Of a DNA stretch of 64,000 nucleotides, positions 7,500-53,985 are shown one piece after another. Numbering within the stretch: position 1 is the first letter of the stretch; every line of letters begins with the position of its first letter. The notes under the pieces were generated by a model. The model saw nothing but the letters and a program-made list of their open reading frames with translations, was not told the origin of the DNA and did not search any database. The stretch spans positions 8,310,001 through 8,374,000 of the forward strand of contig NC_087251.1 in assembly GCF_037042905.1 (NCBI RefSeq). Reading direction: 5' to 3'. The translations under genes and the position numbers were made by a program. The stretch is from Lytechinus pictus (Eukaryota).

Positions 7500-7610
7500 A
7501 TGAAATTCCTACTGTTACTAACTCTGGCCGTTGTCGCTAGTGCCTCTTTGGCACCTTTCTATGACGCTGGCAGAAATGGTGTTAAAGGACGATACATCGT
7601 CGTCCTCCAG
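7500..7610 (+). CDS. Protease coding exon 1: signal peptide and start of prodomain ([37 protein letters not shown])
   Basis: ATG at 7500, hydrophobic signal peptide, YIVVL prodomain motif, donor CAG|GTAAGC. An acceptor ttcctag ending at 7485 implies an upstream UTR exon. Confidence 0.9.
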
Positions 7611-52600: not shown

Positions 52601-53985
52601 GTTAGGGGCGCCGAATCAATGTTCGACATGGGGGGGGGGGCCGAATTGATGTCCGACCTAGGGGCGCGCCGAATTGATATTTTACTTAGGGGGGCTGAAT
52701 CGATGTTTTACTTAGGGGCGCCGCATTGATGTTCAACATGGGGGGGGGGGCGCCGAATTGATGTCCGACCTAGGGGCCCGCCAAACTTAGGGGCGCCAAA
52801 TCAATGTCTTACTATAGGGGCGCCGGAATGATATTTGGCATAGGGGGTGCGGAATTAATGTTCGACCTAGGGGCACCGAATTAATGTTCAACACAGCACT
52901 AATTTGATGTTTGTCCTGAGGCGCCAATTCATGTTCAACCTAGGGAGGGGGCACCAAATTCATATTCGACCTTTGAGGCGCAAATTTGATGTTTGTCGCG
53001 GGGTGCCAAACTTATGTTCAACCTAGGGAGGGGGCGCCATATTCATATTCAAATTTTCGGGCGCCAAATTCATGTTTCACAGTTTGGCGGTCGCATTGAA
53101 AGCATTGTTAGATGCCCATCCTGTTCATGATAACCAAAAGTGCTTAGAAATTCCAGATTCAGAATATCACCTTTTTTTACCTCGTGCTTCGCTCTCGCAC
53201 AATTTACACAGATACCCATCCTATTCATGGTTATAAAATGTGCTTAGAATGTCCACAAAACAATTTGACAAGCCCAAAAAAGGGGGGGATGAGCCGGCTG
53301 TGCCCCCCCCCCCTTGTGGAAATTGCCAGTGATTCGTTCTTAAAGTCTCTCTCAACTTAAAAATGGCTTTATGAAACACTTACCTGGTCGCATTTATTCC
53401 TTTAAAAAAGTGGTGTACAACATATGGATATTTATTCATGCACACATTTTCACGTGATTATGAAATAGCATAATTCAACATGCATTGGCACCTATGTTTG
53501 CCTGGCGGGAGTGGGGGCACCAAAATTAGGTCTGGCCCTCGGGGTGCAAAATCCTGGATACGCGCCTGGTGTGCAAAATATTTTCGTGAAATTTAGTGAA
53601 AAGTTAAGATGAAATATTTTGCTATATTACAAACATTTGGTTAATTTGTCAGTATTTTGCTATACGCTTATTTTTTCAATATTTATATTCAAATAAACTG
53701 GATGTTGGTTAGTTATATAATATATGACGAAGCCCTGTAATTGTTTGCATTTAAAAAATTTTGACAATGACTGATTTGTTTTTTAATGGTATTTTCCTTT
53801 CTTTCTTCGAAGGTATTGCTGCTGTTATGGCTTCTAACAAATACGCGTCGAATCCAGAATATACTCAAGCAGACGTCGAGGAAATTTACGTTTCGATCAT
53901 TGAAAACAGTACTCTAGACAAGATAGGTGATTGTATGGATGGACCCATTTATGATACACCAAACCGACTTGCTTATTGTGATTAA
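7500..53985 (+). CDS. Spliced gene (8 coding exons, 390 aa): secreted proteinase K/aqualysin/PCSK9-like subtilisin-family (S8A) serine protease with I9-type prodomain
   Basis: Exons 7500-7610, 13442-13579, 14945-15083, 22545-22657, 40229-40370, 50214-50398, 51130-51301, 53813-53985 total 1173 nt. All introns are GT-AG with compatible phases (0,0,1,0,1,0,1) and no internal stop. Motifs: [16 protein letters not shown] (Asp), [11 protein letters not shown] (His), SAGNN (oxyanion Asn), [12 protein letters not shown] (Ser). Confidence 0.95.
7973..10709. mobile_element. Tc1/mariner-type MITE with long TIRs; right TIR interrupted by HINE copy 2
   Basis: TA|CAGTGCGTATAAAAAAAACGGGACAG...CTGTCCCGTTTT[HINE]TTTTATACGCACTG|TA. 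Confidence 0.85.
9313..10697 (+). mobile_element. HINE/Helentron-associated element copy 2 (about 7 repeat units)
   Basis: 5' subTIR GTCTCACCTGCAT with hairpin, GGC microsatellite, tandem repeats, 3' subTIR ATGCAGGTGAGAC; inserted in a T-run without an evident TSD. Confidence 0.85.
10724..11542. mobile_element. Tc1/mariner-type MITE with long TIRs in a (TA)n tract
   Basis: CAGTGCGTCCCAGAAAAAACGAAACCGAGATTT...AAATCTCGGTTTCGTTTTTTGTGGGACGCACTG with TA flanks. Confidence 0.88.
12716..13099. mobile_element. Small palindromic minisatellite-armed (foldback/MULE-like) element
   Basis: ggtctaat/gtccaat units on the left, attagacc/tagacga units on the right. Confidence 0.55.
13442..13579 (+). CDS. 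Protease coding exon 2: prodomain (DGVNID...PEGGLDI)
   Basis: Acceptor tctttccag, donor GTAAGT, 138 nt, phase 0/0, fits between exons 1 and 3. Confidence 0.85.
13740..14704 (+). mobile_element. HINE/Helentron-associated element copy 3
   Basis: Complete termini as in copy 2; T-run insertion; nearly identical to copy 4. Confidence 0.88.
14945..15083 (+). CDS. Protease coding exon 3: end of prodomain and mature N-terminus ([16 protein letters not shown]...WGLDRIDQR...NID)
   Basis: Acceptor ttttcag, donor GTTAGT; VAYVEED and WGLDRIDQR are proteinase K family motifs. Confidence 0.93.
15218..15990 (+). mobile_element. tRNA-derived SINE (Meta-domain-like core) split by a MITE
   Basis: tRNA-like head ggtagagcatccgtctcataatcgggaggtcggg before the MITE; cgtcagactaaa...aaaagatgggagctgctgctaccctgtttagc after it. 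Confidence 0.5.
15277..15823. mobile_element. G-run-ended MITE family copy A, 8-bp TSD GATTAAAA
   Basis: TIR core CACTTAYATTGACRAGTGGATACCATGCGCGACC; same family at 16205, 41754 and a fragment at about 46690. Confidence 0.75.
16205..16765. mobile_element. G-run-ended MITE family copy B
   Basis: Colinear with copy A; same TIRs. Confidence 0.8.
16773..17223. mobile_element. Palindromic MITE (PIF/Harbinger-like)
   Basis: TIR tgtttacacttaatcggcatt / aatgccgattaagtttaaacag; internal gccgatgcagaatcggc repeats. Confidence 0.65.
17986..18384. mobile_element. hAT-like MITE with apparent 6-bp TSD GGTAAA
   Basis: ggtaaa|CAGTGCTTCCA...TGGAAGCACTG|ggtaaa. Confidence 0.65.
18669..19239. mobile_element. 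Element with a 170-bp terminal hairpin and a second inverted repeat (Crypton-like non-autonomous, tentative)
   Basis: Hairpin 18669-18838 centred on cccgagggcc-atc-ggcccgaggg; ttatatcccttac (18840) pairs with gtaagggatataa (19227-19239). Confidence 0.55.
19336..21030. mobile_element. 1.7-kb foldback palindrome (TTAA-flanked outer element with AT-rich inner part 19811-20548)
   Basis: Arms of about 700 bp are near-perfect reverse complements; TTAA at 19332 and 21031. Confidence 0.85.
21045..21516. mobile_element. hAT-like MITE
   Basis: TIR CAGGGTTCCCAGC...GCTGGGAACCCTG with subterminal tcaggg repeats; TSD not clear. Confidence 0.65.
21890..22440. repeat. Degenerate 16-bp array (attagaccaagtgg core), opposite orientation to 16030-17560
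   Basis: Direct reading. Confidence 0.8.
22545..22657 (+). CDS. Protease coding exon 4: catalytic Asp ([26 protein letters not shown]...GGD)
   Basis: Acceptor tttacag, donor GTGAGT; VIDSG and HEDFGGRA motifs. Confidence 0.95.
24161..28090. mobile_element. About 3.9-kb composite repeat insertion splitting the left arm of the foldback
   Basis: Starts caggtgcggatcc; contains a purine-rich tract 24220-24930, gggcgccgaattgatgttcga repeats, periodic gctcgcgcttcgcgctcgc motifs and ggtccgcccctg at about 27450. The arm sequence resumes at 28091. Confidence 0.6.
28303..28624. mobile_element. hAT-like MITE with 8-bp TSD TAATTAAT nested in the central MITE (28232-28858) of the foldback
   Basis: taattaat|CATTGGCGGCGGAAG...CTTCCGCCGCCTAAG|taattaat. 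Confidence 0.8.
29850..30400 (+). repeat. 42-bp in-frame tandem repeat ([18 protein letters not shown]), about 12 degenerate copies
   Basis: Unit gagaatgaaggtgacacgatgagtgatgataacatcttacat. Confidence 0.9.
32243..33046. mobile_element. P-element-like non-autonomous element, perfect 31-bp TIRs, 7-bp TSD CTTTGAC
   Basis: ctttgac|CATGGACCTATTACGAATGGACATTCAACGA...TCGTTGAATGTCCATTCGTAATAGGTCCATG|ctttgac. Confidence 0.85.
34324..36071. mobile_element. TIR element (CAT...ATG ends) hosting HINE copy 4 and a small MITE; related copies at about 44822-47012 and 47311-48832
   Basis: CATTACGTCAAACCCCCGTTTGGAGAAAGACCGCAGTTCAGATTGCAAACTGCGGT and its reverse complement ending at 36071. Confidence 0.8.
35025..35985 (+). 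mobile_element. HINE/Helentron-associated element copy 4
   Basis: Complete termini; nearly identical to copy 3. Confidence 0.88.
37070..39870. repeat. About 231-bp satellite array interrupted by HINE copy 5
   Basis: Recurring aatggttccgtagttctgctcccaaa...ggtccatgtgcttgtttttaaactatcagtgtcc; units at 38763 and 38994 are 231 bp apart. Confidence 0.9.
37641..38544 (+). mobile_element. HINE/Helentron-associated element copy 5
   Basis: Both subTIRs present; splits the satellite unit at its T-run (tgcttgttt|...|ttaaactatcagtg). Confidence 0.85.
40229..40370 (+). CDS. Protease coding exon 5: catalytic His ([17 protein letters not shown]...SDSIA)
   Basis: Acceptor tatttcag, donor GTAATG, 142 nt. 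Confidence 0.96.
40413..40676. mobile_element. Kolobok-like MITE (TTAA|AGGGGAATGAAACCTTTGGAA)
   Basis: TIR mirrored by ttccaaaggtttcattctcct. Confidence 0.65.
41754..43520. mobile_element. G-run-ended MITE family copy C, 8-bp TSD TGTACAAT, with about 1.3 kb internal insertion (about 42170-43450)
   Basis: tgtacaat|CCCGGGG...CCCCGG|tgtacaat; colinear with copies A and B outside the insert. Confidence 0.8.
44331..44535. mobile_element. Small hAT-like MITE
   Basis: TIR CAGAGCTGCCAA; imperfect 8-bp TSD gggcaatt/gggcatat; aatactga repeats. Confidence 0.7.
47369..48594. mobile_element. CCC...GGG-ended element with 2-bp TA TSD and repeat-rich arms (EnSpm/CACTA-like, tentative)
   Basis: ta|CCCAGGACCAAAATC...GATTTTGGTCCTGGG|ta; removal restores the host sequence aaggtcctactacaggc seen inverted at about 34690. 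Confidence 0.8.
48949..49527. mobile_element. Kolobok-like palindromic MITE, right end truncated
   Basis: TTAA|AGGTCAAGTCCAC; aaaatcggatgtaaaataagaaagttatgaca mirrored at about 49440-49470. Confidence 0.65.
50214..50398 (+). CDS. Protease coding exon 6: SMSLGG and SAGN (ALNWVAAN...SPASAPE)
   Basis: Acceptor ttttcag, donor GTAAAT, 185 nt. Confidence 0.96.
51130..51301 (+). CDS. Protease coding exon 7: catalytic Ser (AITVGAT...[14 protein letters not shown]...[11 protein letters not shown])
   Basis: Acceptor tatatag, donor GTAATA, 172 nt. Confidence 0.96.
52540..53075. repeat. About 27-bp degenerate minisatellite (gggcgccgaattgatgttcgaccta), same family as 24940-25200
   Basis: Direct reading. 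Confidence 0.8.
53813..53985 (+). CDS. Protease last coding exon (GIAAVMAS...[10 protein letters not shown])
   Basis: Pyrimidine tract plus aag acceptor; TPN(R/L)L family C-terminal motif; TAA stop at 53983-53985. Confidence 0.9.

Follow-up and report, generated by a model that had tools for sequence, protein, structure and literature searches.

A proteinase K-like subtilase gene of the sea urchin Lytechinus pictus and its intron-based kinship with PCSK9

Gene structure and product

We analyzed a 64,000-nucleotide (nt) stretch of the sea urchin Lytechinus pictus genome (the window; NCBI RefSeq assembly GCF_037042905.1, contig NC_087251.1, positions 8,310,001 to 8,374,000, forward strand). It carries a protease gene of the S8A subtilase group in which introns 2-7 map to the positions and phases of introns 2-7 of human PCSK9, three of those PCSK9 boundaries being confirmed in print. 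Our preferred reading, held with considerable confidence, is that of an intact S8A gene, likely encoding a secreted, self-activating protease of broad specificity and likely sharing with PCSK9 an ancestral animal gene that already had these introns.

The gene occupies positions 7500-53985 of the window on the + strand (about 46 kb) and has eight coding exons. Each of the seven introns has GT-AG ends; their phases are 0, 0, 1, 0, 1, 0 and 1.

7500..7610, +: exon 1, 111 nt; codes for a hydrophobic, signal-like protein start and for the first strand of the prodomain
Intron 1: phase 0, after Q37 (YIVVLQ); aligns to PCSK9 residue 83 and is not common to PCSK9 intron 1
13442..13579, +: exon 2, 138 nt; prodomain
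Intron 2: phase 0, after I83 (LDI/LRSLP), equivalent to PCSK9 L133
14945..15083, +: exon 3, 139 nt; covers the end of the prodomain, the region of predicted autocleavage and WGLDRIDQR
Intron 3: phase 1, in codon 130, equivalent to PCSK9 175; 11 codons upstream of the catalytic Asp
22545..22657, +: exon 4, 113 nt; catalytic Asp141
Intron 4: phase 0, after D167, equivalent to PCSK9 219
40229..40370, +: exon 5, 142 nt; catalytic His174, Cys171, Cys178 and Cys203
Intron 5: phase 1, in codon 215, equivalent to PCSK9 267
50214..50398, +: exon 6, 185 nt; carries Asn261 of the oxyanion hole; some transcripts skip it, and its donor (GAA/GTAAAT) is weak
Intron 6: phase 0, after E276, equivalent to PCSK9 332
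51130..51301, +: exon 7, 172 nt; catalytic Ser326
Intron 7: phase 1, in codon 334, equivalent to PCSK9 394
53813..53985, +: coding part of exon 8, 173 nt including the stop; the protein terminates where the catalytic domain ends

The product has 390 amino acids and one terminal stop (codon 391), with no internal stops or frameshifts. Spliced alignment of the Strongylocentrotus purpuratus homolog P0002 (73% identical), run with no coordinates supplied, recovered the identical eight exons, and a Diadema homolog aligned to the window gave the same eight plus one spurious 6-nt piece. The original prediction, made from the letters of the window, had proposed six junctions with phases 0, 1, 0, 1, 0 and 1, a 142-nt exon 5 and a 390-residue product; all of these are present in the sequence, and the spliced alignments agree with them. 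An acceptor-like sequence at 7470-7499, ending 14 nt 5' of the ATG, suggests a non-coding first exon upstream. Downstream, AATAAA occurs at 54024 and 54471, and transcript contigs extend to at least 54300.

The nearest named relatives of the product are sea urchin "aqualysin-1-like" proteins. One of them, P0001, "aqualysin-1-like [Lytechinus variegatus]", is 86% identical over the product length; a 160-residue C-terminal fragment labeled Lytechinus pictus is 97% identical.

Protein features

The protein has a subtilase architecture of putative signal peptide (a hydrophobic N-terminus), I9-like prodomain and S8 domain, with a complete triad (Asp141/His174/Ser326) and oxyanion Asn261. The predicted mature part comprises about 285 residues, with a mass of 29 kDa and an isoelectric point of 4.6. 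The Pfam searches and the structure model used P0001. Peptidase_S8 (PF00082) matched with E 7.6e-43, and Pfam I9 scored below its cut-off (14.4 vs 21.2 bits). The prodomain region of the window protein matches solved subtilase propeptides (E 2e-7), and the region folds with a predicted local distance difference test score (pLDDT) of about 90 in the P0001 model, which as a whole is a pro-subtilase fold with pLDDT 87. By its S8 domain, triad, oxyanion asparagine and I9-type prodomain, the product is a proteinase K-like S8A subtilase. Among solved structures it is nearest to proteinase K, aqualysin and PCSK9, not to kexins or true subtilisins, and the top Foldseek match of the P0001 model was a PCSK9 chain with prodomain and catalytic domain (template modeling score, TM, 0.80).

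Other echinoderm and hemichordate proteinase K-like subtilases ("aqualysin-1-like") share this architecture and the same cysteine set at 40-86% identity. The window gene differs from them in belonging to an urchin-specific subclade with extra cysteines (248, 311, 374 and 389), in its 46-kb length and in its weak exon-6 donor. Human PCSK9 (PDB 2p4e, 5vla and others) has the same fold of prodomain and catalytic domain, and the catalytic residues align. At about 32% identity, however, the urchin protein lacks the C-terminal Cys/His-rich domain of PCSK9 (PF18459, PF18464, PF18463), stopping at codon 391, and its gene has eight coding exons and belongs to a multigene family, whereas PCSK9 is a single gene with 12.

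Intron positions compared with PCSK9

PCSK9 columns were taken from HMMER coordinates on PDB PCSK9 chains. In the prodomain, query residues 28-100 correspond to PCSK9 74-150, and the last 32 residues run ungapped across LDI/LRSLP against LEL/ALKLP. Residue 138 of P0001 aligns with PCSK9 177, which puts intron 3 in codon 175. Exon 5 residues 3-44 match PCSK9 222-263 with no gaps, exon 5 covering 220-266 plus one base; exon 6 residues 11-61 match 282-332, and exon 7 residues 2-57 match 334-393. Searched alone, neither exon 3 nor exon 4 had a PCSK9 match among PDB chains. By the alignment offsets, His174, Asn261 and Ser326 fall on PCSK9 226, 317 and 386, its known catalytic residues. The urchin introns 2-7 thereby fall in PCSK9 codons 133, 175, 219, 267, 332 and 394, at cDNA positions 399, 523, 657, 799, 996 and 1180. 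As originally proposed, intron 1 is the only one that differs, following YIVVLQ.

In PCSK9 the corresponding boundaries are c.399, c.523, c.658, c.799, c.996 and c.1180, with c.207 for intron 1. Three of them (c.658, c.799 and c.1180) and the 142-nt exon 5, the same length as in the urchin gene, are fixed by the variant names c.658-36, c.799+3, c.799+64 and intron 7 c.1180+17 in passages of PMC8891005. We did not find c.399, c.523 or c.996 in print, including in passages of PMC2034530, PMC7538608 and PMC3661383. The claim that introns 2-7 sit at PCSK9 positions and phases thus holds for the codon columns, given by PDB alignment, and for the three printed boundaries.

The chance of at least six of seven common sites is 4e-14 with 990 possible sites and 3e-6 with 50 usable ones; for the three print-verified sites alone it is 2e-7 and 2e-3, respectively. 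The intron match is far beyond chance, and chance is excluded as its cause.

These figures bear on the idea of a contaminant, or of a gene recently transferred from bacteria, whose introns were gained independently at sites that PCSK9 also favors. The P0001 model is indeed 44-45% identical to bacterial aqualysin-type structures and 31-36% to PCSK9, and several junctions lie in AG/G-like contexts. We find this idea barely credible. The gene is 46 kb long, is broken by seven GT-AG introns and lies on a contig of 49.7 Mb, and homologs occur in five echinoderm classes and in hemichordates. Six common sites have a chance of at most 3e-6 even with only 50 usable; the three boundaries that we did not find in print, if right, refute independent gain, and the three printed ones alone leave p at or below 2e-3. 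Contamination is ruled out, and so is a bacterial transfer that was recent or confined to echinoderms.

A family of paralogs in the genome

The proteinase K-like subtilases modeled in this genome share the intron set of the window gene, apart from four that lack intron 3. Exon 7 has 51 genomic matches, most of them exactly 58 codons long. Around 21 of these loci, exon 7 was flanked by AG and GT in every case, and GT followed exon 6 in all 20 and exon 5 in all 18 that were found. We modeled 20 paralogs, namely 18 of the 21 loci and two neighbors; the ends of low-scoring models are noisy. Introns 2 and 6 occupied the same column in 20/20, intron 5 in 19 (the exception being a modeling artefact) and intron 1 in 18. 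Intron 3 was in the same column in 15, one codon off in one, and absent from four genes of one contig (C1). Intron 4 had phase 0 in all 20 and lay at the identical codon in nine. Five paralogs have an exon 3 of 124 nt, the length that the boundaries c.399 and c.523 imply for PCSK9. The shared introns are thus a trait of the family (about 50 paralogs), and the window gene is not singled out by them.

An 11-exon paralog (C1:16937459-16951155) has two CUB domains and no intron 3; the linker that follows its catalytic domain is interrupted by a phase-1 intron. PCSK9 intron 8 is also of phase 1 and behind the catalytic domain; a correspondence between the two was not counted because the linker cannot be aligned. 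Separately, a low-scoring model on contig C15 near 9819900 reads SV where the catalytic serine should be part of SM, its oxyanion segment is altered as well, and this paralog is possibly divergent in activity.

The shared introns and fold might point to a functional sea urchin PCSK9, that is, a one-to-one ortholog regulating lipoprotein-receptor turnover. This is highly unlikely, given that about 50 paralogs carry the same introns, the protein stops where the catalytic domain ends, the gene sits in an urchin-only clade of the tree (99), and the protease motifs are intact. Pfam PCSK9_C1 (PF18459) and PCSK9_C3 (PF18463) had no match in the genome, which are weak negatives from an exon-wise search run without a positive control and not including PF18464. 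The window gene is likely one of many co-orthologs of PCSK9, a co-ortholog at best and no functional PCSK9, and the number of paralogs speaks for a many-to-one relation.

Transcripts and exon 6 skipping

The original prediction called for its junctions to be confirmed by RNA-seq, and the contigs did so for the splice sites of exons 5-8; they carry no support for introns 1-3. None of the runs is recorded as RNA; we took them to be RNA from their spliced joints and from word shares of 0.26-0.28 over positions 50100-51400 in 7/8 runs, which equals the exon fraction of that query (357/1301). The join of exon 7 to exon 8 (51301 to 53813) was present in contigs of 4/4 runs from two studies. Exon 5 began exactly at 40229 in contigs of two runs with 554 further letters upstream, which would correspond to 501 coding bases and a 53-base leader. 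Exon 6 ended exactly at 50398 in contigs of three of the four runs. In one run a contig extends from intron 5 into exon 6.

Contigs of the same four runs (two studies) also joined exon 5 to exon 7 (40370 to 51130), skipping exon 6. The skip removes 185 nt and shifts the frame, so that codon 225 becomes a stop, 140 nt ahead of the last junction. Contig depth gives no isoform ratios. None of the other six donors is as weak as that of exon 6, which lies at the 8th percentile among 115 paralog donors.

The copy could accordingly be a decaying paralog with an intact frame, most of whose transcripts skip exon 6 and yield no enzyme. Besides the skip in every run and the weak donor, the nearest record, at 97% identity, is merely a 160-residue C-terminal fragment. 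On the other hand, the gene has no stop or frameshift, full-length counterparts exist in two other urchin species (86% and 73% identical), and exon-6-containing contigs with exact donor ends were found in three of the four runs. We judge decay to be unlikely.

Relation to bacterial and fungal subtilases

A profile built from 44 family sequences scored bacterial aqualysin-type proteins at 376-431 bits, fungal proteins at 250-359 and full-length PCSK9 at 272-274. Bacterial aqualysin I, the Serratia proteinase K-like enzyme and the Meiothermus keratinase (PDB 4dzt, 2b6n, 5wsl) gave the highest sequence scores, and enzymes of this type share a 13-residue motif and four aqualysin-type cysteines with the urchin gene. 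They differ in being intronless, in having valine rather than cysteine after HGTH, and in their often long C-terminal domains. The fungal proteinase K family (PDB 1ic6, 8rse) belongs to the same S8A subfamily and has an I9 prodomain and, in 5/9 rows of our alignment, a cysteine after HGTH, but lacks the four aqualysin-type cysteines (0/9).

That alignment, and the quick tree made from it, comprised 74 rows picked by similarity to the query: 37 animal (ambulacrarian), nine fungal, 25 prokaryote-type and three protist. Cys171, 203, 267 and 298 were present in 37/37 animal rows, 11/11 named bacterial rows, no fungal row, and two to three of the three protist rows. By the alignment offsets they correspond to the PCSK9 cysteines at 223, 255, 323 and 358, the last allowing for an insertion of four residues. 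Cys178 was found in 37/37 animal and 5/9 fungal rows, and Cys329 in 32/37 and 5/9; neither occurred in the 25 prokaryote-type rows.

The original prediction had proposed an S8A tree as a check. PCSK9 was not recognized among the matches listed in the homolog and representative searches, so the tree was built without it and the mapping rests on PDB alignments. The 37 ambulacrarian rows grouped with one long algal row (Shimodaira-Hasegawa-like approximate likelihood ratio, SH-aLRT, 93), apart from the fungi. However, neither an animal clade (p 0.80) nor an animal-plus-fungal clade (approximately unbiased p, p-AU, 0.855) was rejected, and both constrained trees outscored the free one. The search behind the quick tree was thus not deep enough, and the tree neither supports nor refutes transfer.

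According to passages of bioRxiv 10.1101/802215, proteinase K-like ("PK-like") genes form the family of PCSK9. S. purpuratus has 62 such loci, whereas 15 of the 23 animal genomes considered have none, and Capsaspora and Acanthamoeba also have members. This distribution cuts both ways for an ancient origin from bacteria, in which an aqualysin-type gene entered an early animal or holozoan ancestor, acquired introns later and was inherited vertically thereafter, giving the whole animal family including PCSK9. The absences would fit such a transfer, as would the four cysteines common to all animal and named bacterial rows and to no fungal row, the higher profile scores of bacteria than of fungi, and the separation of animals from fungi in the tree. 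The Capsaspora and Acanthamoeba genes and the protist rows with the four cysteines speak against it, as do Cys178 and Cys329, common to animals and fungi and to no prokaryote-type row, and the better-scoring animal-plus-fungal constraint (p-AU 0.855); the selection of tree rows by similarity to the query further weakens the case. We consider this transfer conceivable but doubtful. It is compatible with our preferred explanation and would limit "vertical" to the deuterostome period.

A metagenome scan found 78 loci, each one span of about gene length, and no intron-bearing relatives; an atlas search returned fungal and bacterial clusters and one PCSK9 cluster. Passages of PMC2717940 gave no residue-level fungal intron sites.

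Fifteen representative matches carried animal-type motifs. Among the ten looked up, eight were from Ambulacraria and one was labeled Salmonella, likely wrongly. Two CUB-bearing relatives with animal-type features (P0199 and P0372) are labeled Salmonella and come from contigs of about 2 kb; they are likely mislabeled echinoderm transcripts.

Origin and possible role of the gene

The original prediction described a vertically inherited member of the PCSK9 lineage. Our results uphold common intron-bearing ancestry, but the gene is not singled out (51 exon-7 matches, paralogs with the same introns) and lacks the C-terminal domain. An intron-bearing ancestor of this gene and PCSK9 no younger than the deuterostome stem is supported. 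Introns common to two deuterostomes cannot show vertical descent below that stem.

Several points weigh against descent from the same gene as PCSK9 or against a productive copy. Three of the six PCSK9 boundaries (c.399, c.523 and c.996) were not found in print. Intron 1 is displaced by 14 codons relative to PCSK9 intron 1, and intron 4 lies in an indel-prone loop, at the PCSK9-matching codon exactly in 9/20 paralogs, +1 in seven and -1 in four. The profile ranks bacterial aqualysin-type proteins above PCSK9, the Foldseek rank of PCSK9 owes partly to the prodomain being present in those chains, and the tree does not include PCSK9. Finally, part of the transcript pool is non-productive because exon 6 is skipped.

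We propose that the common ancestor of echinoderms and chordates had a single gene with introns 2-7. Ambulacraria would have expanded it into dozens of paralogs, while in the chordate line one copy would have gained the Cys/His-rich C-terminal domain and become receptor-binding PCSK9. A bolder version, which we think rather unlikely, holds that PCSK9 exons 2-8 preserve an aqualysin-type gene for a gut protease which early animals took up from bacteria. Echinoderms would have amplified it about 50-fold as a digestive and matrix enzyme, and chordates would have appended a receptor-regulating domain at the phase-1 intron behind exon 8, much as CUB exons were added at a phase-1 intron there in an urchin paralog. 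If true, urchin enzymes would be living models of pre-regulatory PCSK9.

S8A prodomains chaperone folding and are then removed through self-cleavage; PCSK9 keeps its prodomain and acts without proteolysis. By family resemblance, the signal peptide of the urchin protein would direct secretion, and the I9-like prodomain would chaperone folding, be cut near residue 105 and be degraded. The acidic 29-kDa mature enzyme would most likely act as a secreted digestive or matrix protease, breaking down dietary or matrix proteins, either in the gut or in the extracellular space. Passages of PMC5897022 report holothurian serine proteases bearing I9 and CUB domains and, citing Yan 2014, an intestinal holothurian protease named "PCSK9" that degrades collagen; the same name is used in part of bioRxiv 2020.09.01.273102. 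Subtilisin-like genes, of unchecked subfamily, are expressed in the gut of amphioxus and Platynereis according to passages of PMC6015868, PMC4307165 and PMC5996498, and the reference list of PMC11574266 contains a title by Ren et al. 2016 that names two sea cucumber genes "PCSK9 paralogs". The kinship of the echinoderm family with PCSK9 is already accepted in print, and the intron evidence sharpens it. We found no literature comparing these introns with those of PCSK9, in a search that covered neither Cameron et al. 2008 nor Ren et al. 2016, the latter said to discuss gene structure.

Databases label these genes "aqualysin-1-like" and their sequences resemble bacterial ones, which would bring them up in screens for horizontal transfer. 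The shared introns instead place them and the drug target PCSK9 in the descent of one animal gene that is at least deuterostome-old. The urchin family also offers relatives, probably active, with which the loss of general proteolysis in PCSK9 can be studied.

Other features of the window

Introns 2 and 4 contain a 964-base-pair (bp) segment (13740-14703 and 35025-35985) that includes 192-bp and 163-bp tandem units and is 99.6% identical between the two copies, likely a recently mobile element. This duplicate prompted the idea of a second exon copy inside the window, which was rejected. The 163-bp unit is also arrayed at 573-1254, 9425-10611 and 37739-38464. A GC-rich island in intron 4 (29374-31840, 45%) holds three consecutive long stop-free frames of 229, 186 and 415 amino acids; none has a Pfam match, and one includes an acidic 14-residue repeat. 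In intron 5, a very abundant repeat at 48632-49579 draws most contigs. Upstream of the gene, a 52-bp minisatellite at 3794-5157 is present in 26 copies.

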